Assembly (NCBI GenBank): GCA_022826645.1
Contig: JAJDUM010000027.1
Coordinates: forward strand, 12,033 to 76,032
From: Candidatus Poribacteria bacterium
GTDB taxonomy: Bacteria > Poribacteria > WGA-4E > PCPOR2b
DNA: 64,000 bases
Reading direction: 5' to 3'
In this document: one piece after another, positions 22,501 to 45,742 of the stretch
Layout: every line of letters starts with the position of its first letter
Numbering within the stretch: position 1 is the first letter of the stretch
Program-made: the position numbers and the translations under genes
Notes under the pieces: generated by a model
What the model saw: the letters and a program-made list of their open reading frames with translations, nothing else
What the model was told of the DNA's origin: nothing
Databases searched by the model: none

Positions 22501-23515
22501 TGAACCGGCGGATGATATTTTCGATTTTGATGAGCTACGAAACGGATTTACGATCCCTGCGACCGGCACTTACTATGTTGAGGTCACCTCTTTTTTCGGA
22601 GAGAGTGACGAGGATTCTAGCTACACGCTCACCTTAACGATCGAGGGGGGCAGCGAACTCGGACTGTTTCCGCCCTATGATGTGAATCAAGATGGGGTGG
22701 TGGACATCTTTGATCTGGTGCTTGTCGGTCAACATTTCGGCGAGACATTCATTAACGCCACGCCCATCGCTGATTTTGGACAGCTCCGATCGGTCTCGCC
22801 CGAAGGGGAGTTGCGGCTTCTGATGACGCCGAGTGCAACCGATAGACGACAGTTGACAGTCTCAATCGACGCCACAGCGATTGCTGATCTCTACGGCTAC
22901 CATTTCTCAATCCAGTATGATTCGACGGTGTTGGAACTTCTGACCGCCTCACCAAGCCCGCAGCTGGCAGATGCGCTGCAACAGAGTTATTGGAATGTCT
23001 CCCAACAAGGAACACAACTGGAACTAATGCAGACGCGGCAAGGCGTAACCGAAGGGGTCGCGGCTGAAGGGGCATTGGCGACACTCGTTTTTGATGTCAA
23101 ACAGACCCAACTACCGACCTTGCCCGTCCAGTTGGTTTCGGTCCAACTGGCGGATTCGCGGCCACGCGCGATTCCGGTCAATCTTGTTGCGGAACGGATC
23201 TTGATGACGGAACTGTTCCCTGATAAGCCGATGTTAATGCAAAACTATCCCAACCCGTTTAACCCCGAAACGTGGATCCCATATCAACTCTCTACCGATT
23301 CGGAGGTGGTTCTCTCAATTTACGATTCAAACGGTGAGCCCGTCCGTCGGTTCGATTTGGGGTATCAGCACGTCGGGACATACGCCACTCGCGGCAGAGC
23401 GGTTCACTGGAACGGCAGAAATGAGTTCGGTGAAAATGTGGTAAGCGGTGTCTATTTCTATCACCTCAATGCTGGTGATTATTCCCAAACACGGAAGATG
23501 CTGATACTCAAGTGA
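19502..23515 (+). CDS. secreted zinc metalloprotease (M4/M36 thermolysin-fungalysin clan) with propeptide, multiple PPC-like domains, a dockerin-like segment and a T9SS C-terminal sorting domain
   Basis: Signal peptide. 'HEYGHAVLD' (HExxH) plus 'HEGFSD' (third ligand Glu). Repeated 'GDxDxDYYxF' PPC-like motifs. 'DVNQDGVVDIFDLV' is dockerin-like. The C-terminus 'NYPNPFNPETWIPYQL...VYFYHL' has the T9SS CTD signature. Confidence 0.85.
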   Translation: MQQQSVLFHIKKSIRALPIVLALCVVLVSIPSGVYAKTGARQELQLKAASTLQRIRSASATGVRVRWHQDRGTVRSLYNLTVPAPVGTPETSARQCLSDYCDLFAMTDPTVELRLKAVQNSLTGRHIRFHQYHRGVEVYGASISVHTNRSDQIRVIHNNYFPQIDISTSASLSAEQAISIALAESGAIDLRKPSQAGLVIFPARNGAYHLAYRVIVHLHRPLAGWEYIIDAHTGAPLHRRSVLRFADGRGRVFNPNPVVALKDLTLMDQDDSADAIPDEAYTDVILPELDGTGFLDGRYVSTRLTPERANEPPLEYNYLRDDPRFEEVMVYYHVDAVGRYLKGLGFDFVDDWQLPTNVHVNESNNAFYDDSDGSINFGDGGVDTAEDAEVIIHEYGHAVLDRQVSGIYIGEGGAIHEGFSDFLAASFFSAVSDGFGDTLVFDWAGLEAPEYLTRPVDGHKHYPEDLVGLPHDDGEMWSASLWELFQALGRDGSIRLVIESHFYLSSDTEFVDGASALFTADQELNGGVNSDLILGVMENRGFLTPPTLASDDFETNDTADTAAAVELPFINGEVSIHTGDDVDYYQFELTDPMQVGVGIDFQPIYGELMLTLTGPTGVALVSFETKAVTSLELEPGNYLIAVSGVNGATNDYQLALIIDNHGDTPESATAVAIGDTVESFIEFSGDTDFFSFDGEQGELINITVKTDDSDLDSLLVVYGPDGVLLAKNDDVASLFGPFPERNPSGIDSRVNEELPADGTYLLAVSNIAPPKLNAPFGGVNYSYTLSIKENVDDHAPCGSGEETPLVRDEPVTGVINLFTDPENPFDEDADGFRFDAAAGDVISLHLAVESSSEFAFTTLRLLDELGNELLSTQTPFDGSDVQIEGFEIGVDGGYCVEVSGRGSPTDEDYTYTLTLSEGELQDDDHDGLRGDPTPITSGVPVEGIISFDGDADAFQFDTIAGAIVTLNVELNPQAPFFGVMVTLYDSDLERLTASFWSGFDEPADDIFDFDELRNGFTIPATGTYYVEVTSFFGESDEDSSYTLTLTIEGGSELGLFPPYDVNQDGVVDIFDLVLVGQHFGETFINATPIADFGQLRSVSPEGELRLLMTPSATDRRQLTVSIDATAIADLYGYHFSIQYDSTVLELLTASPSPQLADALQQSYWNVSQQGTQLELMQTRQGVTEGVAAEGALATLVFDVKQTQLPTLPVQLVSVQLADSRPRAIPVNLVAERILMTELFPDKPMLMQNYPNPFNPETWIPYQLSTDSEVVLSIYDSNGEPVRRFDLGYQHVGTYATRGRAVHWNGRNEFGENVVSGVYFYHLNAGDYSQTRKMLILK

Positions 23516-23848
23516 GCTTTGTTGCTTACGGCAACCATTAAAAAAAGCAAGATGCGTTTGAAAATCTCAAAACGGCGGCTTAATGATGAAGCAAAAGCGA
23601 TTCAAAAGGCAGCACCGCCGCCCACACCACAGAGAAGAAGGAGTGAGTAGACCGTTTTTGTTAAAAAAAAAGCTAAAGATTTTGGTATGAAACCGATATA
23701 ATATATAGCGACTTGCATTTTTGGAGGCAAACCGCAAACGTTTATAGGTACACTTTCCTCACAACGCACTGTTCAGCTGTTAGATGAGCAGCGCTTAACA
23801 GGCTTGTTACATATCGTTAGATGTAACCGCCACGACGGAGGAATAGCG

Positions 23849-24478
23849 ATGACACCTCACCGCGGTCCCCACTATTCTAAAAATTGTCCCTTCCATATCA
23901 CCAAAAACCAACCGCTGAGCGCAGCCGAGTCGGTGGTCCGATGCGTCGATTGCGTCACCTGTGGTTCAGACCGACTTAAACCCGCCAAAGCGGATCTGCA
24001 TCAACTCGCCTATCTTACCATCGTTGAAAACGATCCAAAATATGACCAAAACCACCCAAGCGGTGCGAGCCTCGGCACGTTTATCCGGTCCCGTGTGTGT
24101 GCCACGCTCTGGAACGAGCGCGATAAAGACCTGAAAGCCATACCCTATTCTGCCCTTGAAGGCGATGACGGTGCACAACACCAGAAGGTCAATCGATTGA
24201 TCGACGAGCTAGTCGCCGAGTCCCTTTTGCGCGAGAGCGTCGAAGATACTGCCATACGGCATCTGGATCTCGAGATTTTCAAGATGGCACTCCCCCAACT
24301 GCTAGAGTGTTTATCCGAAAAAGAGCGGATGGTCCTGGAGATGAAGTTTTATCAAGGACTCAGAGCTGTTGAGATAGCTGACAGGCTTGGTCTCAGTGAG
24401 GGTCGGGTCAGCCAGCTGTCCCGCAAAGCACTCGCGAAGTTGGGTAAAGCCTACCTGTTTGGAACCACCCCATCATAA
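23849..24478 (+). CDS. sigma-70 family RNA polymerase sigma factor (FliA/SigB-like) with N-terminal Cys-rich segment
   Basis: The region-4 HTH 'RAVEIADRLGLSEGRVSQLSRKAL' and a region-2-like 'LAYLTIVEN'. The N-terminus has CxxH...CxxC...C. The GGAGG RBS is 7 nt before the ATG at 23849. Confidence 0.72.
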   Translation: MTPHRGPHYSKNCPFHITKNQPLSAAESVVRCVDCVTCGSDRLKPAKADLHQLAYLTIVENDPKYDQNHPSGASLGTFIRSRVCATLWNERDKDLKAIPYSALEGDDGAQHQKVNRLIDELVAESLLRESVEDTAIRHLDLEIFKMALPQLLECLSEKERMVLEMKFYQGLRAVEIADRLGLSEGRVSQLSRKALAKLGKAYLFGTTPS

Positions 24479-28395: not shown

Positions 28396-29553
28396 TTAGC
28401 CGATACGCCGAGAAGCAAGTACATCTTCATTCAGCTTTGATCCCAGTCCGGGCAGATCCGATGGGATGAGTTCGCCGTTCTCAATCTGGAGGGGCGGATC
28501 GATGAAGTCATGTTCCCACGCGGCCTCCGGCGCGGTGCCGGCATACTCCATATAGAGCAGATTGGGTATCGTCGCGGAGACGTGGGAGGTCGCCCGGGTG
28601 AGCACGGGACCACACCAGTTGTGGGGTGCTAATTTGACATCGTGAACCTCCGCCATCGCTGCAACCTTGAAGGTTTCCAGAATACCGCCATTATTGCCTA
28701 CCTCTGACTGAAGAATCTGGATGCCGCTGTCGGCGAGGACTTTTTCGGCGCTCCGCCGTTCGGAGAGTAGTTCCCCTGTGGCAATAGGTATCGAGGTTGA
28801 ATCCGCGACCTGCTTGATGAGGTTGGGTTGATCAGGCGGATTGGTCGGTTCTTCAAAGAAGAAAGGATTTAAGGGTTCCAGTGCCTTGACGGTCATCAGC
28901 GCACCTTCGAGGCTAAACCTCGCGTGTGCATCAATTGCCATGTTGAAATCTGCGCCGAGCGCATTCCGCATTGCTTCCACCTCTTTAATGGCTCCGTCTA
29001 GCTGCGCCGTCTCCGGTGTACCTTGAATCCCGTAATATCCAAACGGATCCCATTTGAACATATCGAAGCCCATCTCTTTTGTGCTTACTGCCCGTTCGAC
29101 CCGTTCTTCAACAGTCTTGGATTCACCGAAAACACCATGGTTAGCGTAGAGTGGGATTCGCTCCCGGACACGTCCGCCAAGCAGGGTATAGATAGGAAGC
29201 CCTGCCACCTGTCCCAAAATGTCCCACATCGCAATCTCAATGGCGCTGACCGCCGCGAACCACTCCCAACCCGAACCACCCTGAGCGGCTCGGTTTAGGA
29301 AGGCTTCAATCTCCAAGGGATTAGCGCCTTCAAGCTCTCTTGACATTGAATCCACAAAGTCTCGAATCGCCAATGATCGTGCCTCCCCAGAGGCGTGACA
29401 TTCTCCGATTCCGTCAATCCCTTGATCTGTCCGAATCCTGACGATCAGAAATGCGTAGCCACGAGTGTTTGGCTTAATCAAAATCGGCTCTACTGTTTCA
29501 ATTTTTATGGGGTGACTTGCTTTCGATGCTGCTTCTGAATGAGGTCCTTCCAT
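28396..29553 (-). CDS. enolase-superfamily enzyme (mandelate racemase/muconate lactonizing, sugar-acid dehydratase-like)
   Basis: An N-terminal capping domain and a barrel with 'DAHARF', 'FFEEP' and 'ATGE' (metal ligands D/E/D). Confidence 0.85.
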   Translation of the reverse strand: MEGPHSEAASKASHPIKIETVEPILIKPNTRGYAFLIVRIRTDQGIDGIGECHASGEARSLAIRDFVDSMSRELEGANPLEIEAFLNRAAQGGSGWEWFAAVSAIEIAMWDILGQVAGLPIYTLLGGRVRERIPLYANHGVFGESKTVEERVERAVSTKEMGFDMFKWDPFGYYGIQGTPETAQLDGAIKEVEAMRNALGADFNMAIDAHARFSLEGALMTVKALEPLNPFFFEEPTNPPDQPNLIKQVADSTSIPIATGELLSERRSAEKVLADSGIQILQSEVGNNGGILETFKVAAMAEVHDVKLAPHNWCGPVLTRATSHVSATIPNLLYMEYAGTAPEAAWEHDFIDPPLQIENGELIPSDLPGLGSKLNEDVLASRRIG

Positions 29554-29736
29554 CGTTTTCCCTTTCTTCAAGAATTGTACGAGCTTGAACCATAAACGGT
29601 ATTATATCGTTATCTATCTGGATTGTAAAGTGTATTTTGCCAACTGAAGATAACCCCTTCGGCAATAGTCTGGGACGCTGCTATGTCACTCCTTAAATTC
29701 TTTTTTTTGTTTTCTGCTAATTTTTTCGCATTTTTC

Positions 29737-29771
29737 CTTGACACCCCTCTTTATGCCTGCTAAAATATTAG
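29737..29771 (+). promoter_or_regulatory. candidate promoter TTGACA-N17-TAAAAT with overlapping palindrome gctaaaatattagc (possible BlaI-type operator)
   Basis: -35 at 29737-29742, -10 at 29760-29765. The 14-bp near-palindrome at 29758-29771 overlaps the -10. Confidence 0.45.
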
Positions 29772-29863
29772 CACTTTATCAAAAAAGATTCGATTGGTAA
29801 GCAAAAGTCCCTGAATTTTGATGTCATTGAGGCTGACATTTACGCACCCCAAGAGAGGATAGC

Positions 29864-30253
29864 ATGGAAGATTATGGTACCGTAAAATTGAGCCGTCGCG
29901 AGCGGCAGATTATGGACATCATTTATCAACAGGGCCAGGTGTCGGCAGCCGATGTACTGGCAAATCTCCCAGATGCGCCCAGCTATTCGACAGTACGGGC
30001 ATTGTTGCGGATTTTGGAGGAGAAGGGGCATCTCACCCACCAAAAAGATGGACCTCGCTACATCTATCGTCCGACACAGCCGCGCCATGAGGCGGGACAG
30101 TCTGCGCTCAAACAGATTGTTCAGACCTTCTTTGATAAATCGATCGAAAAAACGGTTGCAGCGTTAGTGGCTGATGAGGAAGTTTCAGACGAGGAACTTA
30201 ACCGTTTAAGCCAACTCATTGAGCAAGCGAAAAAAGGAGGACCTCCATCATGA
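29864..30253 (+). CDS. BlaI/MecI/CopY family transcriptional repressor
   Basis: 'LSRRERQIMDIIYQQGQVSAADV...STVRALLRILEEKG' is a winged helix, with a C-terminal dimerisation helix. Confidence 0.88.
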   Translation: MEDYGTVKLSRRERQIMDIIYQQGQVSAADVLANLPDAPSYSTVRALLRILEEKGHLTHQKDGPRYIYRPTQPRHEAGQSALKQIVQTFFDKSIEKTVAALVADEEVSDEELNRLSQLIEQAKKGGPPS

Positions 30254-33081
30254 TCCCTTTGATTGAAACCCTCGAAATAAACGCATGGCTGAAATTCTTG
30301 ATTGACGCAACGATGAAAAGTTTCGTGATTCTCGCCGTTGCAGGGCTATTCGGGTTCATTCTGCGTCGTCGCTCGGCGGCGGTGCGCGGTTGGGTTTGGA
30401 GTTTGGCGATAGTGGGCTGCCTGACTATACCGTTATTTTCGCTGATACTTCCGCAGTGGGAAGTTGGCGTTCTACCGTCAACGTCGGAGAGATTTGAGGG
30501 GGACCGCCGGGTAGATAGCAGGCAGTCAGCCAGATTACCTGTTCCAGTTGTATCGCATCCGTTAGCATCCACTACTGCGTCATCAACCCAAACCACACCA
30601 ACACAGATTCCACCAGCAGCCGTAACTAATGAGAGTGGTGCTCCTCAATCCACTATGTTAGGAACAGGTGTCCCTTCGCTTCATTGGACCGATTGGTTAG
30701 CGGTGTGCTGGGTAGCAGGTGCACTACTTTTTATCGCTCGATTGTGTGTGGGAATCGGTGCTGTCTGGCACCTCTCTGCCCGTAGCGATGATTTCAACGT
30801 TTCAGTTCCGTATGTGCCTTCTGGTTGGAAGCGGTCAGTCAGTGTCCGTCAGGGCAACGCGGTCACAGTACCGATGGTGTGGGGGTTGTTTCATCCGGTG
30901 ATTTTATTGCCTGCTGATGCGGAGGAGTGGAGTCATGAACAGCAACGCGCTGTATTGCTTCACGAATCAGCACATATTCAACGGCAGGATTGGTTGATGC
31001 AAACATTGGCACAGATAACGTGTGCGGTGTACTGGTTTAACCCACTCGTTTGGTTTGCCGCGCGTCGGCTGCGGACGGAGGTGGAGCGTGCATGTGACGA
31101 CCATGTGCTTAACGCGGGGTATCAATCAACGGACTACGCCCAACATCTACTCGATATTGTAAGGAATATCAAAGCAGGGCGCTCCATTTCGCGGGCGGCT
31201 GTGGCGATGGCACGTCCCTCTAAAATTGAAGGGAGGCTCCGAGCAATTCTGGCAAAAAACCAGAATCGGCGGTCCGTGACGAAGGTCGCATTAGTGCTGA
31301 TCCTATTCGGCTGCATCTGTTTTGTCGTCTTGATAGGAATGATGCAGTTAACAGAAACGAGGAACCCAACTGATGACCCGGCATTACTGGACGAAGCGTA
31401 CGAACACAAAGAACAGATTTACGGCATAATAGACGACGGACCGAGATGGAGAGTATACGATCTGCTTCGTGCCGAACTTGTTCTAGGGAAACCTGCGCCT
31501 GACTTTTCGAGCATCAGCCTAGACGGCGTCCCGATATCGCTGAATGATTTGCGAGGCAAAGTGGTCGTACTCCACTATTGGTCAATACAATACGACGAGA
31601 CGGATATAGCGAAAGTCAAACGACTATACAGCAGGCACGGTGACGATTCCAATTTCGTCTTAATCTCTATCTGTGTACAGAGTAGGGCAGCTGAAGGGGA
31701 AGCGGAAGTAAAACAGTTGGTCGAGACACACGCGATGCCGGGGGTCCATCTGCTCTTTGAATCCAAGATGGTGCCGTACCCGTTCGCTGTGCAGGGTTGG
31801 CCCTATTATGTGGTCATCGATAAGGCGGGAATCGTCCGCGAGAGTGATCGTGGCTACGCACTAAGAGGGCATGCGCTGAGAGATTTGGAGGTGGAACAGT
31901 TGGTCACAGCACTGCTGGCAGAGGATATAGACACCTCTGGCGAGCGTATTATCCCTCGAATCAGTCAAATCCGTTCTGAGTTCTACATATCTCAAGACCA
32001 GAAGGAAAAAGCACTCGCTGAATATGAAAAGCTCCTCGATTTCCTCTATCAAGAACCAGAGCAAACGGGTGAGGCGGCGGCATTAATGGATCGGGCATAT
32101 GACCGGATGGTTGAAGCCAGGAATTTGTCAGGTTCGGGTCTCGATTTCCGCCGTTATAGACCCAGTTCAAGGCAATTGTCCTCTCAATACAAAGAAGAAT
32201 TGAGACAAATCTTCTCCCAGCAATTTGACAGAGAAAAGACACTCGGGGTGTACGAACAAACAGGTAAGGTACAAATACAACGAAGACTATCCTTAGAACA
32301 GTTAGCGCAGCAACCTTTGACTGTTGATCAACAACGCCTTTTAACCCAGCTCCTCAAAAACGACGAGGACTTAGCACAAGTCTTGTCGAGTGAACCGTAT
32401 TTAGCCTATCTGAAGGCTCAGGCTCGACATGGACAGGTGTATAAAGATTTTTCTGCTTATGTCGCCGCCGTGCCGACACCGAAGCAGAAAACCGCTATCC
32501 GTTCCGCACTTAAATTGGTGCTATCCCCAATAACAGATTTGTCCGCGCTACCCCCAGCGACAAAGGCAGAGCAACTAGAGATATGTGTCGATTCATATTT
32601 CCGTGCACGCGAGTGGTTACTCACCAAGGCTGACACACCACCCATAATAGATGGCATGGAAGAGTTTCATAATATTCAGAAGTATACCAGATTCTTCAGT
32701 ACATACTTTGAGTCCTCAATGGGAGAGATGTATAGGGATACACTACTCAGCATTGATAATAGCTGGACGGATTCGTATATCCTCGGTTTGTATCGGAATG
32801 AGTCGCAACTGTACGCAATCGGTGAGGCTGTGTATTTTATGGCAAACATCGACGCGGCAGTGTATCAGGATGGGTTCCGCGAGCGTTTGGAAAAGTTTGG
32901 CTCGCGAGAGGGTTTACTCCGGTGCGCGATTGGGTTCCCTGACGAATTTGCGTTTATGCGTTCGCTTTTTGAGGATACCGATGCACTCGAAAAATGGATT
33001 TTAGAACCCCCATCTCTCTCTCAAGAAAAAGGGATTTTACTCCGACCAGTTCCTCTTGAGAGGGGAATCGAAATAGAGTAA
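30250..33081 (+). CDS. BlaR1/MecR1-like M56 peptidase signal transducer fused to a thioredoxin-like (TlpA/redoxin) domain and a long helical C-terminal extension
   Basis: A 4-nt overlap with blaI. TM helices, 'LLHESAHIQRQD' (the HExxH M56 motif) and 'LRGKVVVLHYWS' (thioredoxin-fold beta1). Confidence 0.82.
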   Translation: MIPLIETLEINAWLKFLIDATMKSFVILAVAGLFGFILRRRSAAVRGWVWSLAIVGCLTIPLFSLILPQWEVGVLPSTSERFEGDRRVDSRQSARLPVPVVSHPLASTTASSTQTTPTQIPPAAVTNESGAPQSTMLGTGVPSLHWTDWLAVCWVAGALLFIARLCVGIGAVWHLSARSDDFNVSVPYVPSGWKRSVSVRQGNAVTVPMVWGLFHPVILLPADAEEWSHEQQRAVLLHESAHIQRQDWLMQTLAQITCAVYWFNPLVWFAARRLRTEVERACDDHVLNAGYQSTDYAQHLLDIVRNIKAGRSISRAAVAMARPSKIEGRLRAILAKNQNRRSVTKVALVLILFGCICFVVLIGMMQLTETRNPTDDPALLDEAYEHKEQIYGIIDDGPRWRVYDLLRAELVLGKPAPDFSSISLDGVPISLNDLRGKVVVLHYWSIQYDETDIAKVKRLYSRHGDDSNFVLISICVQSRAAEGEAEVKQLVETHAMPGVHLLFESKMVPYPFAVQGWPYYVVIDKAGIVRESDRGYALRGHALRDLEVEQLVTALLAEDIDTSGERIIPRISQIRSEFYISQDQKEKALAEYEKLLDFLYQEPEQTGEAAALMDRAYDRMVEARNLSGSGLDFRRYRPSSRQLSSQYKEELRQIFSQQFDREKTLGVYEQTGKVQIQRRLSLEQLAQQPLTVDQQRLLTQLLKNDEDLAQVLSSEPYLAYLKAQARHGQVYKDFSAYVAAVPTPKQKTAIRSALKLVLSPITDLSALPPATKAEQLEICVDSYFRAREWLLTKADTPPIIDGMEEFHNIQKYTRFFSTYFESSMGEMYRDTLLSIDNSWTDSYILGLYRNESQLYAIGEAVYFMANIDAAVYQDGFRERLEKFGSREGLLRCAIGFPDEFAFMRSLFEDTDALEKWILEPPSLSQEKGILLRPVPLERGIEIE

Positions 33082-33167
33082 TAAAATCCACCAATCAAGA
33101 TTTTACCAACCCCCGCACTTCCTCCCTGTATTTCCAATCTCAATTCTCGTATAATTTTAAAAAAAGT

Positions 33168-33196
33168 ATTACGATTTTTGACTTTTCGAGAGGCGT
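33168..33196 (+). promoter_or_regulatory. candidate promoter TTGACT-N17-TATACT for the giant surface protein gene
   Basis: The hexamers are read directly. An AAGGAG RBS precedes the ATG at 33279. Confidence 0.45.
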
Positions 33197-33278
33197 GATA
33201 TATACTCTTACCGCTTGCTTTTCCTTAGAGTGTATTCAAACAGATCGTGTCTCACAGTTGTAAGGAGATCTGACGCCT

Positions 33279-36200
33279 ATGATAAAGTATCTGATACTCG
33301 GCGGAAGTGCCCTGCTTCTCGGATTCCTATTCTTTCCGCGTGGAGAGGAGGCGGTCGTTGACGGTCAAGATTTTATCGCCCCTGTTCGTACCGTCGAAGA
33401 TGAACCCCTCCACTACACCGGTATTCTGCGTACAGATCCCATCGTCACAACATACGATTTAGGATATGTGTATAGGATTGATAAAGCGGAAATTCGCTTT
33501 GAGAATCCCGATGAGGCGGGACCTCGGCAGTATGATATCCTTGTTCACACGGATCGTGTAGGGCAGCGATTTGAGCGTGCTTTCTCTTATACAGGCAGTT
33601 CCCGCGAATATACATACCCACGCCAAGCATTTCCCCTTCCAATTGAAGCGCGATGGATCCAAGTCGTCATTAATGACTGGTTCAGCAGCAAGCCACAACT
33701 TGAAGAAGGTACGTTCCGCGTTGGTCTCCGCTATCAATCCCACAGTCCGATCATGGCTCTTGACGCAAACTACAACGATGCCGGACTCGAACGACTTACA
33801 GATTTGCTTCGCTCTGAGAACTCTAAATGGATTGCGGCAGCACGGATAGAGAAAGAGGTAAACCAGGGAGATGGGAAAAAAGCGATAGAAATCTCCTATG
33901 AGGCACCGGCAAGCGCGATTCAGGTGATCGGCGATCTCGGATCGAATCAGAAAATCTACGGCGTGCGTCTGACAACGGATGGTCCCGGAAACAATCTCAA
34001 ACGGTATCGCTTCTCCGTCAGCAATGATGGACAGGAATACACGGAAGTATATGTCTCCCACACGCTCGTTGATGAAGTGGTTACCCATGTCCGTCAATTC
34101 AAACCGCCAATATCGGGACGTTATATCCGCTTGCAGATTGAACATGGGGATTGGTACGGTGATTATCCTGAGATTCGTGAGCTTGAAATTTTCACGGACA
34201 CCTATCGGCTGCTGCCTCCCAGCGATAACAGATTAGATGAATACAACGCAGTGCAGATGCACTACGAAAATCTCGGTGAGGGAGGAAATGCACTGGCACC
34301 ACATCTGGCGCAAGGCTTTGCATTTGATAGAGACACGGGAGATGAAGATCGTTACTGGTTACTGGAAGGTGGCACACCGGATGGGGTAGATGTGGGAAAC
34401 ACACCGAGCGAGCGGAGCTTCGCTTACCACTACGATACGGTTAGCATGAGATTTACCGATCTGCAGCCATCGCTGTTATACTGGATGAAAGTGACCTATC
34501 TTCAGAATAGGAGCGGTACCCGGATCCAGAATCTTGACGTTGATGGATTTCTACTGCACGATGCAATCGCAATTCCGACAAGCAGGGCAGAGTACCACAC
34601 CTTCGCACTTCCAAGTCAGGCGTATGCCGACGGTGAGATCGTGCTCAATTTTAACCGTTTGGCAGGTCCAAATGCAGCGGTTTCGGAAGTCTCTATCTTC
34701 GAAGCGAATCCCACCACTGGAGTGGTCAACGGATCCGCTGAATCAGAGAAACTGAATGACCAAAGGGTTGGGCGAGCGATTCGCGTGAGCAAGCAGATTG
34801 TAATTGACGGGACACCAGATGAGTGGCCACTGCTCTACCCAATGCTTCCTCAACACTACGATCGTCCTGTCGATTCACCTGTGGCACTCTACGCACAGTG
34901 GGATGACGAGAACTTCTATATTGCGGGTATTATCAACCGGCACGCTGAACCGCGTCCGACTTCTCGAAAATCCAGCGGCAACGAGGAGCTGCATCTGTTT
35001 GTAGATACGGCACTGACCCGTTCCCCGGGAATGTACACTCCAACTGAACATCACTTCGTCTTTACAATCCACAATCCAGATCGTCCTCAACCTCGCGTAC
35101 AGCCCTCGCAGATACACCATCACCTTGATGCAATCCCGAAAAACATCGACTTTCACGAGTCGATCGAAGTGCGCGCTACAAAAACAGAGATTGGATACAG
35201 CCTTGAAGCCAGAATCCCTAAAGATCAGGCATTAAATGCGTTTCGACCAGCAATCGACAGCTCTATCGGTTTGAATTACATCATGACTCACCTTAAATTG
35301 ATGAATGATCAGTCTGGACGATTTGCTTACGCTTCGGACGAATTCACCGCCCCGCCAAGCCGCTGGAACGAGGTCGAACTTGTAAGCCGGATCAGCGGAC
35401 AGCCTGTGTTAATGGATGAATTTGCAACCCAGTCGATTTCGTCCTTTAACGCTGGCGACACACTGACCCTCTGCGTGTGGGACACTGATCGAAATACAGA
35501 TCGCTACCGAGTCGAATCCATACAAGTGGAATTACGAAATGATACGACCGGACAACTGCTACCAGTTCTCCTTCATGAGTCCGACTTTGCTGCGCTCGCT
35601 GACGCGAATCCGACAAACGATTTCAGCCAAAACAGTTCCGTATTTGCTGCGAAGGTTTCCACCGCATTTGGCGGAACCGCAGAAAATAGTACTGAACCAG
35701 ATAGCTCAGGGGTGGCAGATCTGCAAACACTTTTCGTTCGTGGTGAGGAGACAGTGTCCCTAATATACATCGATCCGTACTATAGTAACACCGCACGAAA
35801 CCGCGCTGTGGATATCAGTGCACGGGTCAATACTGGAATGACCGGAACAATTGCAATCACGACAGAATCTGGGATACTAATCGAGTCCTTCCGACTTGGT
35901 GAACCCCTGTACATACAGGTTAAGGATACGGATTTACTTAGACCAGTGAATGAGCTTGTGCGTGAAAACGAATCTACAGATCAAGAGGTTGATGCGCCAC
36001 TACCTCGCAACATGCAGATAACTGTCAAGTGTATTGTACCAGAAATGCAAGAGGTTGAACCTGTGAAACTCACCTATCAGCCGGAACAGGAATACTATGT
36101 TGGATCGGTTTCTACAGGTTACAGTGAAGCTCCAACGCCAGATAACGGTCGTTTGGAGGCGTTGGGCGCGCAGAGAGTGGTAGCGATTTATTTGGAGGAG

Positions 36201-39200
36201 ATTCAAACCACCGGCAAAACAGACGTTCCGGTCAGCGCACAAGTAAGCGCTGCCGTCGGTGACACCGGACGGATCGAGTTAATCGGGATAGATCGGGACT
36301 TGTCTTCAAACGATCAGAAATTTATCAAGGCAGGCAGTACACTCACTGTAGTATTACGGGATGCAGATTTGAACCGTGACGAAGATCAGCGGGAAACAGT
36401 TGATGTGCTGGTATACGGTAACCGGCTTAACGACCGGTACCAATTCACTCTGAAAGAGGCGCACGATGTCTCGGGTCAATTCACCGGGACATTTGGGACT
36501 CGTTATGCGAGCGAGGCAAACTCCGCCAACAGCGTACTTGAGGTCACAGGTAACGAAGTAGTAACAATCAGCTATATTGATGCCCTATCCGGTTCAGGTA
36601 ATACCCAGGTTACGGTCACAGATACGGCACAGGTCAGTGCCGGTAAAAATGGGGCACTCGACATCCTCAAAGCGAATTACGTTACCGATTTGGAGAACTT
36701 TAAAGCAGGTGACAGACTCTATTTTCGTCTTCATGACACGGATATTACTGATGAATTTATTGAAATCACGCTCACTGGGGACACGTTGAAAGATCAAGAA
36801 ACGGTGCAGCTGTTCCAATCGATGGAGGAAGATACCCGCATCTACCCCGTCGAGGGGACATTCTTCGGATTAATCCAAACCGCGTATGGCACCCAGCATC
36901 AAGAGAACGATGGCATCTTACAGGTAAAAGGCGCGGAACAGGTAAAAGCCATTTACATGGATGAACTGCAATCCACAGGCGAAACTAACGTCGCATTTTA
37001 TGATACCTGTGAGGCGAACGTTGGGATCACGGGAAAGCTTAAAGTTTATAACAAGGCAAATTTCGATTATGCCTTGGCTCAGAACTTTGAGGCATCGAGT
37101 TTTCGAGCCGGTGACACCTTGATTTTGGAAGTTCAAGATGCCGATCTCGACACCACGACTGTAACTGTAGAACTGCTTGAATCCGATTTTACGGAGGGCA
37201 CAGTTCGGGATAGAACCGGTGTGATTTTGGCTAAAACGGAAGACAGTGTAGATATCTTCCGTGGTGAGATTAGAACTGCCTACGGCAATGCCCCTATTCC
37301 AAACGACGATATTTTGCAGGTCCAAGGCGAAGGCGTTGTTACATGCAGCTATATTGATGTGCTACAAAATACGGGGGCAACGTCAGTACCTATTCAGAAG
37401 AGCCTTTCAATAGAAACGGGGGATAAAGGTGAGCTGGAAATCTATAGCGCAGACAGTGGTGTGATTATCAGTGGATCTGCTGTGGGTACTGGGAGTTTCA
37501 GCGTAGGTGAAAGACTAAGGATACGGTTAGCAGATAAGGACATGAACCTCTTCCCAAAGGTATCTGACAGCGCAATAGTGTCGGTCTGGGGCAATGTCGT
37601 CGCTGACACAGTTCAGGTCATTTTGCGCGAAACATCAACTAACACCGCGGTTTTTGAAGGCGACCTGCTGACTCAAAAAGGGGAACCGATAATCGCCGAA
37701 GGCACTGCACCAGCCACCACAGATAAGGCTCTGGAGATTACGGATAAAGAGGTTATTACCGCCGAATATATTGACGAAATTACCACTACCGGCGAAACGG
37801 ACGTGCGGACTCAGCTCCAAGCGGTTGTATTGGGCAGCAGTGCAGGTATGTTACGCATCGTTGATGCCCATGTCGTAGATCCACTGCTTAATCCGGCAGA
37901 AACAATTCCAAGTTTCACAGCTACGCCAACAGATTTCGCTTCCGTCCATGAATTAGGCAGCTTTAACGCTGGTGAAACCGTCTACTTCTGGCTCGAGGAT
38001 TTGCTGCTTAGCACAGTTGTCGAAGCCGACGAAGTCAAGATTACGGTTACCGGTGACAAAACAAAAGATGGGGTCGAAGTTATACTCCGTAGAAAGTTGG
38101 GAACTGAAGGGATTTTTACCGGCTCTGTTCCCACCCGCTACGGCACAACACCGGTTGCGGATGAAACTCTGGACGTGCAAGGCGACGAAGATATACGGGC
38201 GATCTATACACCGAATTTTTTGGGCGTGAACTACCCCGTCGTCGAAGATTCCGCTTACACCAATAAAGGCGTCCGGGGATATCTCACAGTCACCCGTGCA
38301 GACGGGACATCGGTTCGGCACTTTAACATAGGGCGTCCCCTTTACTTTCGCGTAGAGGACGCCGACCTGAATCTCGATTTCTTTAAGGTCGAATCGACCA
38401 CCCTCACGGTTGTGACAGAAGCGCAGGAACTGTCAATTATACTGCGTGAGGAAAACTCCAATTCGCATATTTTCCGTGGGCAGGTGCCCACGCAGTATGG
38501 GCGTATGATCAGTCAGAAATCGATCCCCTCTTTGAGGGAGAATGATCAATCCGCCCTACTTGGCCTGCTTGGCGGGGATATTGTCAGGGCAACCTATGAA
38601 GATGGACTGACCGATACTGGGGAAACAAATGTGGAAATAAGTGTGAGCTGTCGCGCAAACTCTATCGCTTGGGCACCCTTCACAGATCGCCCCGTACTGA
38701 TTGATGGACATGAGGATGGCTGGCCCCTTGAGAGAGCGCTCAAAACCTCTCAAGATGCAGGAATTCTCTGGTTACAGTGGGATCGGGACCATCTCTACCT
38801 TCTTGCTCAAATTTATGATGAAGATATCGTTGTGCCAGATGTGATCGAGTATTATCGAGGTGCAGACGCGCTAGAATTGCATATAGATCTGCAACCGGAC
38901 TCCGTCAAAAAGCCAAGCTATTTGCAGACGGAGAACAATCCAGATCGGCATGTCATCTGGATATGTCCAAAAGGCGGTGGTTTTCACGGAGATCGACCCT
39001 ATATCGGGCAAGGTGCGCCGGAATTTATCCCCAACTATCAGGCGGCTAATCTTGATGTTGCGGTGAGGCAGCAAGCGAATTATTACGTTATGGAAGCGCG
39101 CATCCCTTTCTTCCCTGTGCTTCGTGGATTTCATCCGTTGAAAACGAAACAGCAGAACCGCATCGGCTTCAACTTTGTTATCCACCGATCTAATAACCAG

Positions 39201-39290
39201 GCGATTTATTGGGCATCACAGATACCAGAGGCGGTCCCGGTATTTCCCAGTGATTTGGGATTGCTGATTTTGGAGTCACCGGTGCCTTAA
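33279..39290 (+). CDS. giant (2003 aa) membrane-anchored surface protein with N-terminal discoidin-like domains, CBM9/DOMON-like domains and ~9 tandem ~130-aa repeats
   Basis: An N-terminal TM helix. Repeats of the form 'VxAxxGxxGxLxI...FxAGDxLxxxLxDxDxN...VxGxExVxxxYxDxLxxTGxTxV'. CBM9-like 'DGxxDEWP...WDxxxLYxxAxIxD' segments near aa 500 and aa 1800. Confidence 0.8.
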   Translation: MIKYLILGGSALLLGFLFFPRGEEAVVDGQDFIAPVRTVEDEPLHYTGILRTDPIVTTYDLGYVYRIDKAEIRFENPDEAGPRQYDILVHTDRVGQRFERAFSYTGSSREYTYPRQAFPLPIEARWIQVVINDWFSSKPQLEEGTFRVGLRYQSHSPIMALDANYNDAGLERLTDLLRSENSKWIAAARIEKEVNQGDGKKAIEISYEAPASAIQVIGDLGSNQKIYGVRLTTDGPGNNLKRYRFSVSNDGQEYTEVYVSHTLVDEVVTHVRQFKPPISGRYIRLQIEHGDWYGDYPEIRELEIFTDTYRLLPPSDNRLDEYNAVQMHYENLGEGGNALAPHLAQGFAFDRDTGDEDRYWLLEGGTPDGVDVGNTPSERSFAYHYDTVSMRFTDLQPSLLYWMKVTYLQNRSGTRIQNLDVDGFLLHDAIAIPTSRAEYHTFALPSQAYADGEIVLNFNRLAGPNAAVSEVSIFEANPTTGVVNGSAESEKLNDQRVGRAIRVSKQIVIDGTPDEWPLLYPMLPQHYDRPVDSPVALYAQWDDENFYIAGIINRHAEPRPTSRKSSGNEELHLFVDTALTRSPGMYTPTEHHFVFTIHNPDRPQPRVQPSQIHHHLDAIPKNIDFHESIEVRATKTEIGYSLEARIPKDQALNAFRPAIDSSIGLNYIMTHLKLMNDQSGRFAYASDEFTAPPSRWNEVELVSRISGQPVLMDEFATQSISSFNAGDTLTLCVWDTDRNTDRYRVESIQVELRNDTTGQLLPVLLHESDFAALADANPTNDFSQNSSVFAAKVSTAFGGTAENSTEPDSSGVADLQTLFVRGEETVSLIYIDPYYSNTARNRAVDISARVNTGMTGTIAITTESGILIESFRLGEPLYIQVKDTDLLRPVNELVRENESTDQEVDAPLPRNMQITVKCIVPEMQEVEPVKLTYQPEQEYYVGSVSTGYSEAPTPDNGRLEALGAQRVVAIYLEEIQTTGKTDVPVSAQVSAAVGDTGRIELIGIDRDLSSNDQKFIKAGSTLTVVLRDADLNRDEDQRETVDVLVYGNRLNDRYQFTLKEAHDVSGQFTGTFGTRYASEANSANSVLEVTGNEVVTISYIDALSGSGNTQVTVTDTAQVSAGKNGALDILKANYVTDLENFKAGDRLYFRLHDTDITDEFIEITLTGDTLKDQETVQLFQSMEEDTRIYPVEGTFFGLIQTAYGTQHQENDGILQVKGAEQVKAIYMDELQSTGETNVAFYDTCEANVGITGKLKVYNKANFDYALAQNFEASSFRAGDTLILEVQDADLDTTTVTVELLESDFTEGTVRDRTGVILAKTEDSVDIFRGEIRTAYGNAPIPNDDILQVQGEGVVTCSYIDVLQNTGATSVPIQKSLSIETGDKGELEIYSADSGVIISGSAVGTGSFSVGERLRIRLADKDMNLFPKVSDSAIVSVWGNVVADTVQVILRETSTNTAVFEGDLLTQKGEPIIAEGTAPATTDKALEITDKEVITAEYIDEITTTGETDVRTQLQAVVLGSSAGMLRIVDAHVVDPLLNPAETIPSFTATPTDFASVHELGSFNAGETVYFWLEDLLLSTVVEADEVKITVTGDKTKDGVEVILRRKLGTEGIFTGSVPTRYGTTPVADETLDVQGDEDIRAIYTPNFLGVNYPVVEDSAYTNKGVRGYLTVTRADGTSVRHFNIGRPLYFRVEDADLNLDFFKVESTTLTVVTEAQELSIILREENSNSHIFRGQVPTQYGRMISQKSIPSLRENDQSALLGLLGGDIVRATYEDGLTDTGETNVEISVSCRANSIAWAPFTDRPVLIDGHEDGWPLERALKTSQDAGILWLQWDRDHLYLLAQIYDEDIVVPDVIEYYRGADALELHIDLQPDSVKKPSYLQTENNPDRHVIWICPKGGGFHGDRPYIGQGAPEFIPNYQAANLDVAVRQQANYYVMEARIPFFPVLRGFHPLKTKQQNRIGFNFVIHRSNNQAIYWASQIPEAVPVFPSDLGLLILESPVP

Positions 39291-41510: not shown

Positions 41511-42656
41511 TTAGGTGTCTATTCGGTTGGCTTCAATATAATCCCAATCATACTCTATACCCAATCCGGGCTTCTGAGAGACGATCACATTACCTTCAGA
41601 ATCGATTGGATCTGTAATCGTTTTTAGCTCGGGCGAAGGCTGTTCATAATCAACACCGGGACGTAGGAGTCCCCTCTCGTAATACCGACAGGTAGCTTCG
41701 GGCGCAGCGCAGGCAAGATGGACGTGGGGTGCACCTGTGCCGTGCAGTTCGCACTGTATACCGTAAGCCTGACAAAGATTGATTAACTTCCAGCAACCGG
41801 TGATCCCACCATAGAAGATGTCGATACGCATCATGTCGGACGCCCCCTGTAGTATCCACTCCGCTCGGCTGAACACGCCGCCGGGGACGTGTTCCGGGGA
41901 ACAGATGGCGATATCCACCTCGCGGGTGAGTCGCCGGTACGCTTCGACACGGGTCTCAATCATAGGGTGCTCCAACCAGTAGTAATCGAGTTTCTCCAAC
42001 TCTCGCCCCACCCAGATCGCTTCATCCAAGGTATAAACACCGAACGGGTCAAGCATCAGCACCATATCATCCCCTACCGCGTCGCGCACTGCTTTGCATA
42101 CCTCGACATCTTCCTTTGGGAAGCCCGGGAGCTGCGGTGCAGGCTCCTCGGTGTGTGGGTTCCAGCAGATGTAGGCATGGACTTTGTATGCCTTATAGCC
42201 TTTCGCTTTACAAGCTTTCGCGTGCTCGGCATAAACTTCGGGACCACCTAAGTTGGGAAAAGTACTTGCATAGGCTCGGACCTTATCACGTGCCCCACCC
42301 AAGAGTTGGTAGACCGGGACGCCAGCCTTGTTACCCAATAGGTCCCACAGTGCGCAATCAGCTATCCCCATCTCACCCTCCGACGGCCTATGACTGAAAG
42401 TGGACATCTGGTCCATCCAGTGCCAGATCTGCTCCCGGTGTAATGGGTTTTCGCCCAAGATGAGTGGCTTGATGACCCCCTCCATTGTGGCTTTGTCACC
42501 CCCAAGCATGTGTCCGTTGATACCTTCGTCAGTAGAAATCTTGGTGATTGAACCGATACTCTCCACTTCATCTCCCCAGACACCATACCCCCACTTGGTC
42601 GGGTGCCCCCGGGTCGTTGTCCGAAACTGAATGACCTCCACATCAGTTATTTTCAT
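41511..42656 (-). CDS. enolase-superfamily enzyme (mandelate racemase/muconate lactonizing family)
   Basis: Barrel-domain metal ligands ('MLDPFG', 'WLEHP'). Confidence 0.85.
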   Translation of the reverse strand: MKITDVEVIQFRTTTRGHPTKWGYGVWGDEVESIGSITKISTDEGINGHMLGGDKATMEGVIKPLILGENPLHREQIWHWMDQMSTFSHRPSEGEMGIADCALWDLLGNKAGVPVYQLLGGARDKVRAYASTFPNLGGPEVYAEHAKACKAKGYKAYKVHAYICWNPHTEEPAPQLPGFPKEDVEVCKAVRDAVGDDMVLMLDPFGVYTLDEAIWVGRELEKLDYYWLEHPMIETRVEAYRRLTREVDIAICSPEHVPGGVFSRAEWILQGASDMMRIDIFYGGITGCWKLINLCQAYGIQCELHGTGAPHVHLACAAPEATCRYYERGLLRPGVDYEQPSPELKTITDPIDSEGNVIVSQKPGLGIEYDWDYIEANRIDT

Positions 42657-43504: not shown

Positions 43505-44731
43505 ATGAGAATCACAATGCCAGATTTTACAGACAAAGAATTGCTACAAATCGTCGAATTCGGCGAAGCGGACCGCGTTGAGTTGAAGGAATCTTTGTCC
43601 GGCAGTGCTACGGAAAGAATCAGGGAAGCCGTATGTGCGTTTGCCAACGATCTGCCACGCCACCAAAAACCGGGCTTGGTTTTCGTGGGGGTGAGAGACG
43701 ACAAAACCATTACAGGTCTATCGGTCACGGACGAGTTGCTCCAGCAGTTGGCTGATATGAAAACCGATGGGAATATTGTGCCGCCGCCCTCGTTGAACGT
43801 TGAAAAGCGCGTGCTGCAAGGTAAAGAGATTGCCGTCGTCACGGTACAACCCTCCGACTCGCCGCCGGTTCGATTTAGAGGTGCTATTTATATCCGTACC
43901 GGCCCGCGTCGAGGCATCGCTACAGCACAGGATGAAAGGATTCTCAACGAAAAGCGGCGATATGGAGATGTCCCCTTCGACCTACACCCCATCCTTGCAT
44001 CGGGCATCTCCAATCTTAACCTCGCCCGGTTCGAGAATGAATATCTGCCACAGGCTGTTACCGCCGAGATCCTGGAAGCCAATGATCGCACTTCCGAAGA
44101 ACGACTTGTCGCAACGAAGATGATTGCCCCGGGCGATGAACGAATCGCGACGGTATTGGGAGTACTAGTGATCGGCAGAAACCCACAAGATTTTCTTCCA
44201 GGTGCTTACGTGCAGTTCCTCAGAATTGATGGTAACGCATTAACCGATAATATTCTTGACAGCGAAGAGATACGCGGCGCAATCCCAGAACTCCTCCGCC
44301 GTTTGGATGAGAAGCTAATCGCTCACAATCGTACTGCTGTTGATTTCACAACCAGCGTCCTTGAACAACGGACGGAACTTTATCCCATCCCAGCGTTACA
44401 ACAGATCACCCGGAATGCCGTTATGCACAGAACCTACGAAGCAACCCATGCGCCGATTCGTGTGTCTTGGTTCAATGACCGCATTGAGGTTTTTAGTCCC
44501 GGTGGCGCGTTCGGGGTGATAACGGAGGCAAATTTCGGACAGCCCGGACTAACCGATTATCGCAACCCCAATCTGGCGGAGGCGATGAAGAATCTCGGTT
44601 ATGTGCAACGTTTTGGCGTGGGAATACCGACCGCGAAAAGACTCCTGACCGAGGCAGGGCACTCGGAACCGGAATTTAAAATTAACGACAATTACGTGGT
44701 CGTTACCATAAAAGCAGCGCAAAAATCCTGA
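43505..44731 (+). CDS. Schlafen/AlbA_2 DNA-binding domain + HATPase_c_4 (RecG-C-terminal-like) protein, defense-island associated putative regulator
   Basis: N-terminal 'ADRVELKESL...FANDL' (AlbA_2 E..K motif). C-terminal 'RNPNLAEAMKNLGYVQRFGVGI' (HATPase_c_4). Confidence 0.72.
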   Translation: MRITMPDFTDKELLQIVEFGEADRVELKESLSGSATERIREAVCAFANDLPRHQKPGLVFVGVRDDKTITGLSVTDELLQQLADMKTDGNIVPPPSLNVEKRVLQGKEIAVVTVQPSDSPPVRFRGAIYIRTGPRRGIATAQDERILNEKRRYGDVPFDLHPILASGISNLNLARFENEYLPQAVTAEILEANDRTSEERLVATKMIAPGDERIATVLGVLVIGRNPQDFLPGAYVQFLRIDGNALTDNILDSEEIRGAIPELLRRLDEKLIAHNRTAVDFTTSVLEQRTELYPIPALQQITRNAVMHRTYEATHAPIRVSWFNDRIEVFSPGGAFGVITEANFGQPGLTDYRNPNLAEAMKNLGYVQRFGVGIPTAKRLLTEAGHSEPEFKINDNYVVVTIKAAQKS

Positions 44732-44737
44732 GAGGAG

Positions 44738-45742
44738 ATGGCAATGCCCGTTCCAGTGCTAACGTTCTTCAACAATAAAAGCGGTGCTGGCAAGACATCC
44801 CTTGTCTATCATCTGGCGTGGATGCTATCCGATATGGATTATCAAGTGCTCGCTTGTGACCTCGATCCGCAGGCGAACCTCACCCGCATGTTTATCAATG
44901 AGGAACGTCTAGAAATACTGTGGCCTGACGATGGAGAGAGGAAAACCATCTATAATGCCCTCCAACCGCTTTTGGACGGGACCGGAGACATTGAGCAACC
45001 TTACCTAGAACGGATAGCACCGAAGTTGAGCCTCATCGTAGGGGATCTCTCGTTATCCGCTACCGAAGATGAATTTTCGAGCCAATGGCAAGCGTGTCTT
45101 GACCGTCGCCCACGTGCTTTCCGTGTGATTTCAGCACTATGGCGCATTTTACAAACAGCAGCGAACGATAGTGGTGCTGAGATTGTCTTGGTAGATGTGG
45201 GGCCCAATCTAGGGGCTTTGAATAGAGCGGTGTTGGTTGCGACGGATTACGTTATCGTTCCGCTTGGAACAGATCTGATTTCACTTCAAGGACTGCGGAA
45301 CCTTGGTCCGATGCTACGAGATTGGCACAGTGGATGGAAAGATAGATGCGACCGCAACCCCATCCCTGACCTATGTATACCCAATGGATGGATTCAACCC
45401 ATCGGCTATCTGGTACGGCAACCTGATATCCGTTTGAATCGCCCTATAACGGTTGATGACAAATGTTTCAACCGTATGCCAGAGGAATATGCCCGAAACC
45501 TACTAGGCGATAACAATGGCCCCTATCCTGAGACACCGGCACAAGATGAAAAACACGCCCTCGCTATTGTCAAGCACTATCGAAGCCTAGTACCGATGGC
45601 ACAGGAGGCACGAAAGCCCATGTTCCATCTCACTCCGGCCGATGGGGCCATCGGCAGCCATGCCGCCGCCGCCAATGGGGCTCGTGCGGATTTCAAGGCT
45701 TTGGCTGAGAAGATAATCGCAAGGATTGAACTTGGGATATGA
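44738..45742 (+). CDS. ParA/MinD-family ATPase
   Basis: Deviant Walker A 'NNKSGAGKTS' and 'ACDLDPQANL'. It is 334 aa, with a C-terminal extension. Confidence 0.82.
   Translation: MAMPVPVLTFFNNKSGAGKTSLVYHLAWMLSDMDYQVLACDLDPQANLTRMFINEERLEILWPDDGERKTIYNALQPLLDGTGDIEQPYLERIAPKLSLIVGDLSLSATEDEFSSQWQACLDRRPRAFRVISALWRILQTAANDSGAEIVLVDVGPNLGALNRAVLVATDYVIVPLGTDLISLQGLRNLGPMLRDWHSGWKDRCDRNPIPDLCIPNGWIQPIGYLVRQPDIRLNRPITVDDKCFNRMPEEYARNLLGDNNGPYPETPAQDEKHALAIVKHYRSLVPMAQEARKPMFHLTPADGAIGSHAAAANGARADFKALAEKIIARIELGI

Follow-up and report, generated by a model that had tools for sequence, protein, structure and literature searches.

The stretch of DNA analysed here, called the window throughout, covers 64,000 nucleotides (nt) of a Candidatus Poribacteria genome (GCA_022826645.1, contig JAJDUM010000027.1, positions 12,033-76,032 of the forward strand). 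It carries a blaI-like repressor gene, a gene for a BlaR1-like membrane metalloprotease of the M56 family and, on the same strand, a giant gene coding for a predicted surface protein of 2003 amino acids (aa). An earlier reading, made by a model from the letters alone (hereafter the sequence-only reading), proposed that the repressor and the protease form a redox- or envelope-stress-sensing proteolytic switch controlling the giant gene. The domain content, motif loss, operator distribution, promoter conservation and synteny pattern computed here favour another explanation, namely two functional units that stand side by side and are probably independent. The three open reading frames lie where the sequence-only reading had placed them, as do the 4-nt overlap of the blaI and M56 genes (ATGA, from the coordinates) and the TTGACT-N17-TATACT promoter ahead of the giant gene, which starts 197 nt after the M56 stop codon. 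Looking up the exact sequences of the three proteins gave no name for any of them. The genes and their control regions are as follows.

29715-29730, no strand assigned: candidate BlaI operator 1, TGCTAATTTTTTCGCA, one mismatch to TGCTAA-N4-TTAGCA, upstream of the -35 box
29738-29766, forward strand: blaI promoter-like site TTGACA-17-TAAAAT, 11/12 matches, extended TG
29758-29773, no strand assigned: candidate BlaI operator 2, TGCTAAaataTTAGCA, perfect palindrome overlapping the -10 box
29864-30253, forward strand: blaI-like gene, 129 aa, winged-helix repressor of the BlaI/MecI/CopY family
30250-33081, forward strand: M56 (BlaR1-like) membrane metalloprotease-sensor gene, 943 aa
33178-33206, forward strand: promoter-like site of the giant gene, TTGACT-17-TATACT, conserved in 19/20 near loci
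33207-33278, forward strand: conserved leader of about 70 nt with a GGAG ribosome-binding site, nearly invariant among related species
33279-39290, forward strand: gene of the giant acidic protein, predicted to lie at the surface, 2003 aa

Among GTDB species-representative genomes, the giant gene was found at 53 Poribacteria loci, with one locus per metagenome-assembled genome (MAG). All 53 were searched by tblastn for BlaI, the M56 domain, the thioredoxin-like domain and the C-terminal domain of the sensor. Matches to blaI and M56 were limited to a clade with mobA-moeA downstream and a giant-protein identity of 72% or more. Within this near clade the pair is found upstream of the giant gene in 14 of 18 species representatives, the repressor and protease genes being adjacent and co-oriented in all related loci that bear them. 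The arrangement seen in the window, with blaI, a type A M56 gene and the giant gene in succession, occurs at two loci (L014, L019), and at another the type A gene is directly upstream with the contig ending inside it (L018). Three loci place a type B and then a type A gene between blaI and the giant gene (L010, L011, L039), and six carry type B alone, with about 1 kb of unrelated sequence before the giant gene (L009, L013, L016, L022, L036, L042). One locus has another M56 type upstream (L023), and in one a 3.4-kb insertion separates the type A gene from the giant gene (L057). The four others (L012, L015, L020, L021) have neither blaI nor M56 upstream, and in L015 and L021 an MR_MLE (enolase-superfamily) gene is directly upstream of the giant gene.

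Outside the near clade, 30 distant loci offer 4.8 kb or more of upstream sequence, and neither blaI nor M56 turned up at any of them, even with tblastn E-values up to 1 accepted. The Pfam-annotated contexts agree: in L007 the gene upstream is divergent, and in L003-L005 an AAA ATPase is encoded there. Across the phylum, the giant gene has no conserved neighbour. The sequence-only reading had itself named, as an outcome that would refute it, a giant gene regulated independently in homologues lacking the pair. The giant gene stands alone in 4/18 near and 30/30 distant species, where it is an independent unit.

The promoter and leader of the giant gene are also retained without the pair. Three pair-less loci (L012, L015, L020) keep both the TTGACT-17-TATACT site and the leader of about 70 nt; further upstream, past the -35 box, the loci share no related sequence. 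The leader contains an invariant CAGATC/GATCTG hairpin whose 3' arm abuts the GGAG; this hairpin showed no covariation and no Rfam match. The fourth pair-less locus, L021 (9850-9998, OY282444.1), carries a hybrid promoter: its upstream part comes from blaI, with operator 1 and the -35 box (TGCTAAATTTTTCGCA...TTGACAC), and its downstream part, with spacer, -10 box and leader, from the giant gene. This is a deletion scar: recombination between the similar -35 regions removed blaI-M56 precisely and left the giant gene intact.

A candidate operator for the repressor was identified from its palindromy, position and conservation. Operator 2 is the sole perfect copy of TGCTAA-N4-TTAGCA in the 64-kb window and operator 1 sits 43 bp upstream of it; such a pair, spaced by 43-44 bp, precedes blaI in 16/16 blaI-bearing loci. 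Over 1.42 Mb of Poribacteria loci, operator pairs occur at blaI promoters only, with a few isolated one-mismatch sites elsewhere, and across loci none was found within 200 bp of the giant gene, the L021 scar excepted. The sequence-only reading had called for a search for a BlaI operator just upstream of the giant gene, and no copy with three or fewer mismatches was found in the 33082-33278 intergenic region. The BlaI/MecI/CopY-type operator TACAnnTGTA shows no enrichment in the window (17 matches for 15 expected) and has no copy at the blaI promoter. Since the operator pair is confined to the blaI promoter, it suggests an autoregulation of the blaI-M56 module through these candidate sites and offers no hint that BlaI binds at the giant gene. 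With the operator found only at blaI, with the giant gene conserved in pair-less species, and with its own promoter and leader kept in near loci without the pair, the regulatory link is not supported. The adjacency is lineage-specific and evolutionarily unstable and does not define a dedicated switch, and the attractive story of a sensor controlling a giant adhesin is removed as unsupported.

The identity of the upstream pair as a BlaI repressor and an M56 BlaR1-like protease was borne out by Pfam. The repressor matches Penicillinase_R (PF03965) over its full length (2.7e-32) as well as the MecI structure 1sd6 (E 2.8e-05). An assignment to CopY was considered and rejected, as TIGR02698 scores 68 bits for a cut-off of 122 and the 129-aa repressor has no C-terminal cysteine motif. 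The sensor matches Peptidase_M56 (PF05569, 5.4e-34), and its protease domain aligns with that of Staphylococcus aureus BlaR1 (8exs, E 1.8e-08), including a conserved downstream segment that contains a glutamate. Both members of the pair score far under the NCBIfam equivalog cut-offs for true BlaI/BlaR1 (blaR1_generic: 92.7 bits against 400), and Pfam found no transpeptidase- or penicillin-binding protein (PBP)-like sensor domain (PF00905) in the M56 protein. Three features of the latter could be delimited.

30961-30975, forward strand: HESAH zinc-binding motif, aa 238-242, opposite HEYAH of S. aureus BlaR1 (8exs)
31486-31863, forward strand: TlpA/ResA-like thioredoxin-fold domain, aa 413-538, catalytic cysteines absent
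32200-33024, forward strand: C-terminal helical domain, aa ~651-925, no known family

The M56 protein has four strong hydrophobic segments (aa 20-38, 49-67, 151-169 and 346-364), its predicted transmembrane helices, with a basic loop, RRRSAAVR, between the first two. By the positive-inside rule, this loop puts the protease domain on the cytoplasmic side of the membrane and aa 367-943 on the other side, as in BlaR1, so that a 577-aa extracytoplasmic ectodomain is predicted. Besides HESAH, the VVVLHYW motif noticed in the sequence-only reading was recovered (aa 438-444), and the TlpA/redoxin-like domain that it had proposed in place of the beta-lactam sensor stands at the level of the fold. An AlphaFold 2 (AF2) model of aa 368-943 has a mean predicted local distance difference test (pLDDT) score of 65, with 80-90 in the thioredoxin part, and Foldseek matches it to ResA/TlpA-type structures including 4nmu and 3or5 (TM-score 0.72-0.79, normalised by target length). 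Profile searches were less clear-cut, AhpC-TSA scoring just above its cut-off (27.7 bits for 26) but Redoxin below it (22 bits for 26.6). The domain also matches Etrx2 (2yp6, E 9e-07), whose WCGPC lies opposite QYDET: the equivalent of CXXC is Y448-D-E-T451 (nt 31591-31602). No cysteine occurs at this site in any of 120 orthologues and paralogues, the former having W-S-I-[EQ]-Y-D-E and the latter W-S-T-R-D-G... or W-Q-D-G.... The domain in the window keeps the cis-proline loop. The lack of cysteine makes thiol-based redox sensing unlikely, and this part of the earlier proposal was not upheld. Judged from its sequence, the domain is a pseudo-thioredoxin, in which the fold is real and the redox chemistry is gone, and it most likely serves as a binding module.

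The remainder of the ectodomain is helical from aa ~545 to ~930, which gives a tail of about 385 aa where some 500 had been announced. It consists of a low-confidence linker followed by a well-predicted helical domain for which Pfam has no family, and all top PDB Foldseek matches fall on the thioredoxin domain. The region is rare, aa 521-943 having just 37 relatives among 1.84 billion representative proteins. The helical domain is also encoded on its own, in proteins of 270-290 aa whose N-terminal leader is of the signal or lipoprotein-like type; this supports its extracytoplasmic location. A literature search on M56 proteins with thioredoxin found nothing specific.

Two further observations touch this sensor family. 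In L010 (2341-8996), L011 (3178-9791) and L039 (3029-9785), two M56 paralogues stand in tandem behind one blaI gene, and type B (about 1090 aa) has a different C-terminal domain, TPR-like in some members; the two sensors probably share one repressor on which two inputs converge. In L062 (3861-8852) and L063 (6967-8885), stand-alone homologues of the helical domain (283 and 294 aa, with signal or lipoprotein-like leaders) are each preceded, with overlapping stop and start codons, by an unannotated gene of 351-388 aa. In L062 these genes lie downstream of two giant fusion genes that join an extracytoplasmic function (ECF) sigma factor to a BNR beta-propeller. This hints that the helical domain works in other transmembrane signalling contexts.

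The giant protein is very acidic (isoelectric point 4.6, net charge -130). Its sole hydrophobic segment is aa 1-19, which could be either a cleaved signal peptide or a membrane anchor. Five regions follow it.

33381-34193, forward strand: two tandem discoidin (F5/8 type C, CBM32-like) domains, aa ~35-165 and 181-305, from Pfam and fold
34236-34718, forward strand: highly conserved beta-sandwich domain, aa ~320-480, from invariant residues and model
34791-35378, forward strand: internal CBM9-like domain, aa 505-700, with an invariant His cluster HHF...Q.HHHLDAIP
35376-38663, forward strand: eight tandem immunoglobulin (Ig)-like repeats of ~125-150 aa each, aa ~700-1795, from a hidden Markov model (HMM) seeded on one repeat
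38676-39287, forward strand: C-terminal CBM9-like domain, aa 1800-2003, with CBM9_1 (PF06452) at aa 1829-1971

The discoidin and CBM9-like ends described in the sequence-only reading were both found, and a second, internal CBM9-like domain has to be added to them. F5_F8_type_C (PF00754) matches the discoidin region in two stretches (66.8 bits, 2.5e-18) and PF22633 matches it at 44.5 bits; fold matches include factor V/VIII C domains, neuropilin b1b2 and CBM32. The beta-sandwich domain matched nothing in Pfam or, by sequence, in the PDB. At the C-terminus, CBM9_1 is matched at 9.5e-09 (35.8 bits, cut-off 23.4). The internal CBM9-like domain is assigned solely from BLASTP to this C-terminal copy (E 9e-07) and from its fold match to the CBM9 structure 7nwn (TM-score 0.62, normalised by target length). 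Its cluster H591, H592, Q611, H613, H614, H615 and D617 (aa 591-620, window 35049-35138) is invariant in 35/35 aligned homologues and may be a metal- or ligand-binding site; we know of no such cluster as a feature of CBM9.

Between these domains the expected tandem repeats are present, but they number eight and not about nine. Self-BLASTP of the giant protein returned no repeats, and an HMM seeded on one copy was used instead; it placed the copies at aa 718-833, 847-988, 985-1117, 1112-1245, 1271-1374, 1373-1513, 1556-1644 and 1655-1791. They are 26-38% identical among themselves, with a recurring D-x-D-L-N motif, and the repetition exists at the protein level only, no tandem repeats being found in the DNA of the giant gene. 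The repeat unit has no Pfam family, and the sequence-only reading had matched the repeat protein to no characterised family. The repeats do match an S-layer protein of solved structure, that of Nitrosopumilus maritimus (NmSLP). An AF2 model of aa 1-1200 (mean pLDDT 78.8, all-beta past the N-terminal helix) has NmSLP as its top Foldseek match in the PDB (8c8m_A, E 1.2e-18), followed by discoidin-containing proteins and CBM9 7nwn. At the sequence level, a profile of the eight repeats matches NmSLP on its Ig-like domain 9 (E 1.2e-07), with the common pattern D-x-D-[LM]-N ... E-T ... G-x-F-x-G ... Y-x-D. The view of the giant protein as S-layer-like or surface-type thus gains support from both fold and sequence.

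Homologues of the giant protein that carry an organism name all belong to Candidatus Poribacteria, and full-length conservation extends to homologues of 33-39% identity. The MAGs that carry it include pelagic, sediment and hot-spring ones, according to their record titles. Such phylum-wide and apparently single-copy conservation is more in keeping with a core component of the envelope or surface than with a niche adhesin, and we consider it quite likely that the giant protein is a surface protein. That it forms a true S-layer, a very abundant lattice covering the cell, is a more tentative proposal, which falls somewhat short of probable; the conserved, near-consensus promoter and the acidic isoelectric point hint at it indirectly. 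A literature search on Poribacteria with discoidin or S-layer found nothing specific.

Several points weigh against the independence of the two units and against the roles proposed for them. In 14/18 related species the pair precedes the giant gene on the same strand, which is more than would be expected of a random neighbour. No intrinsic terminator or stable hairpin was found between the M56 stop and the giant promoter, the segment 33060-33200 folding only as stably as shuffled sequence (z = -0.04), so that transcription begun at the blaI promoter could continue into the giant gene; a diverged operator half-site could also be present near the giant promoter. In addition, the C-terminal half of the sensor model is of low confidence in places (mean pLDDT 65), and the S-layer role comes from domain-level similarity, tandem Ig-like arrays being found in adhesins as well. 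For a proteolytic switch in which BlaI and M56 control the giant protein in this lineage, through read-through or an unrecognised BlaI site at its promoter, speaks also the short gap of 197 nt between co-oriented genes; moreover, canonical and non-canonical BlaIR systems frequently control an exported or envelope protein encoded close by, such as blaZ, mecA or CDR_0474 (PMC13492132). We consider such a switch clearly unlikely. The giant gene has a conserved promoter and leader of its own and is itself fully conserved in the 4 near and 30 distant species without the pair, its intergenic region has no operator copy within three mismatches, and nothing is conserved upstream of its -35 box. The interval itself is variable, with 0, 1 or 2 M56 genes intervening, the 3.4-kb insertion of L057 and the unrelated kilobase of the type-B-only loci. 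A more elaborate scenario is quite improbable: the giant protein, with lectin domains and an Ig-like repeat type otherwise known from the S-layer of marine ammonia-oxidising archaea, would be the S-layer or envelope lattice of Poribacteria, and in one genus-level clade a BlaIR module with up to two cysteine-less pseudo-thioredoxin sensors per repressor would have been recruited upstream for envelope-signal-dependent read-through. Redox or oxidative envelope stress sensed by the M56 protein through its thioredoxin-like domain, for which the TlpA/ResA fold with its cis-proline loop, the AhpC-TSA and Redoxin profiles and weak ResA matches can be cited, is very improbable. One of these profiles barely exceeds its cut-off and the other stays under it, and Y-D-E-T replaces CXXC with a cysteine in 0/120 family members; the ectodomain cysteines lie elsewhere (C475, C779, C892).

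As regards the function of the giant protein, the other possibility is a glycan-binding adhesin or polysaccharide-capture scaffold, borne on an Ig-like stalk and directed at host matrix or marine polysaccharides. It shares the view of regulation taken here and differs on the function of the second unit alone. Two discoidin (CBM32-like) and two CBM9-like domains would suit such a role, the lone N-terminal hydrophobic helix could anchor the stalk, and Poribacteria have been described as carbohydrate degraders, which also counts in its favour. These predicted lectin domains keep an adhesin or glycan-capture reading alive. Against it stand the full-length, apparently single-copy conservation across the phylum, pelagic, sediment and hot-spring MAGs included, the fact that the one sequence-level match of the repeats is a true S-layer protein, and the strong acidity, which resembles that of NmSLP (PMC11153153). 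On balance we place this explanation on the unlikely side.

Two independent units remain the explanation that we prefer. The first (29715-33081) is very probably a BlaIR-type module of a non-canonical kind, for which we infer BlaI cleavage and the nature of the signal from known systems. A ligand or envelope state in the periplasm would be read by the pseudo-thioredoxin and helical ectodomain, without thiol-disulfide chemistry, and this would activate the cytoplasmic M56 protease, by analogy with BlaR1/MecR1. The activated protease would then cleave the BlaI-like repressor, as homology predicts, and so derepress the blaI-M56 promoter with its two dyads around the -35 and -10 boxes; further targets of the repressor, if any, would lie outside the window. 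The second unit (33178-39290) would be transcribed independently from its own conserved sigma70-like promoter and leader. Its product is most likely a very acidic, S-layer-like or glycan-binding structural protein of the cell surface, a surface or S-layer role that we infer from its domains.

Compared with BlaI/BlaR1 and MecI/MecR1 of Staphylococcus and Bacillus, the first unit has the same translational coupling of a Penicillinase_R repressor gene to an M56 gene, an aligned HExxH motif and downstream glutamate region, a sensor domain after the last transmembrane helix, and two candidate dyad operators at its own promoter that would imply autoregulation. It differs from them in lacking the transpeptidase/PBP-like beta-lactam sensor, in its operator (TGCTAA-N4-TTAGCA instead of TACA/TGTA), in the canonical N-F cleavage pair, which aligns to A-L, and in its neighbours, which are an MR_MLE gene and the giant gene with no linked beta-lactamase or PBP2a gene. 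Such departures are common. In the survey of M56 proteins made in the CenIR study (PMC13492132, 2026), about 6% of some 15,000 members carry a beta-lactam-binding domain, the family has 254 domain architectures, and 96% of its members lie near a BlaI homologue. With so small a share of beta-lactam domains, a swapped sensor is the rule and not the exception, and the earlier impression that this fusion lies outside characterised families does not hold, non-beta-lactam sensor domains being the M56 majority (PMC13492132).

The closest parallels are CenIR of Clostridioides difficile (PMC13492132), BlaIR of Mycobacterium tuberculosis and M. abscessus, and the atypical BlaIR of Pseudomonas aeruginosa (bioRxiv 10.64898/2026.08.03.742534), which likewise combine an M56 protein having a non-beta-lactam C-terminal part with a BlaI-like repressor; a role in envelope physiology is suspected for all of them and for the present pair. 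Unlike these systems, the Poribacteria sensor has a 577-aa folded ectodomain, in which a cysteine-less thioredoxin fold is joined to the helical domain found elsewhere as a stand-alone secreted protein, and some relatives have two paralogous sensors after a single blaI. With the TlpA/ResA/Etrx oxidoreductases it shares the thioredoxin fold, an N-terminal beta-hairpin extension, the cis-proline loop and an extracytoplasmic location, but its CXXC is replaced by Y-D-E-T and oxidoreductase chemistry is not expected.

The giant protein resembles NmSLP (PDB 8c8k-8c8r; PMC11153153) in its tandem Ig-like array, its strong acidity and the similarity of its repeats to domain 9. NmSLP is an array of ten acidic Ig-like domains (PMC11153153), whereas the giant protein has eight repeats, a bacterial host, added discoidin and CBM9-like domains and an N-terminal hydrophobic helix; NmSLP is a proven S-layer protein. 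The predicted carbohydrate-binding modules of the giant protein match CBM9 (Caldicellulosiruptor 7nwn) and CBM32/discoidin modules by Pfam and fold. They differ from the usual ones in not being attached to a glycoside hydrolase and in the invariant His cluster of the internal copy.

Neither unit is categorically new. The first belongs to a large, known and mostly uncharacterised class, its mildly new aspect being the combination of a cysteine-less thioredoxin-fold sensor with a helical domain, and it offers a concrete example of BlaIR sensor diversity, with a catalytically dead thioredoxin fold and a clear candidate operator. The second is an uncharacterised signature of the phylum whose S-layer-type repeats are related to an archaeal S-layer protein. 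In Poribacteria, which are uncultivated, sponge-associated and marine, and ecologically important, this protein is a reasonable first candidate for a cell-surface layer and a potential marker, or target for imaging and proteomics.

On other aspects, the window shows several features of its surroundings. Two MR_MLE paralogues, about 24% identical, lie on the reverse strand at 28396-29571 and 41511-42656; they flank the blaI-M56-giant-mobA-moeA block, and this frame is preserved in every near-clade locus. Elsewhere are a sulfatase, PhyH dioxygenases, and LRR and TPR proteins, which agree with a Poribacteria origin of the window, and no Rfam family or tRNA was found within the whole window. At 19502-24478, on the forward strand, a gene codes for a 1337-aa secreted metalloprotease of the M36/M4 (fungalysin/thermolysin-like) type, with an FTP propeptide and PPC, cohesin and FlgD_ig/T9SS-like C-terminal domains, and is followed by that of a small protein with sigma-70 region 4.

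Further downstream, a six-gene defence island occupies 43505-57671 on the forward strand, and the GC content falls to 0.43 at 52-54 kb. The island codes for a Schlafen/AlbA_2-HATPase_c_4 protein, a ParA-like ATPase, an HKD(PLD)+SNF2 helicase (DrmD-like; PADLOC C3a139, 1.5e-109), a type IIG Eco57I-like restriction-methylase (1.3e-149), an unusual 887-aa fusion of TIR, TPR and a TaqI_C/MmeI target-recognition domain, and an SMC_N/AAA ATPase. The TIR-TPR protein (53590-56253, forward strand) comes directly after the full type IIG enzyme and carries a type IIG target-recognition domain without a methylase or nuclease domain; it may be a TIR effector that senses DNA sequence.

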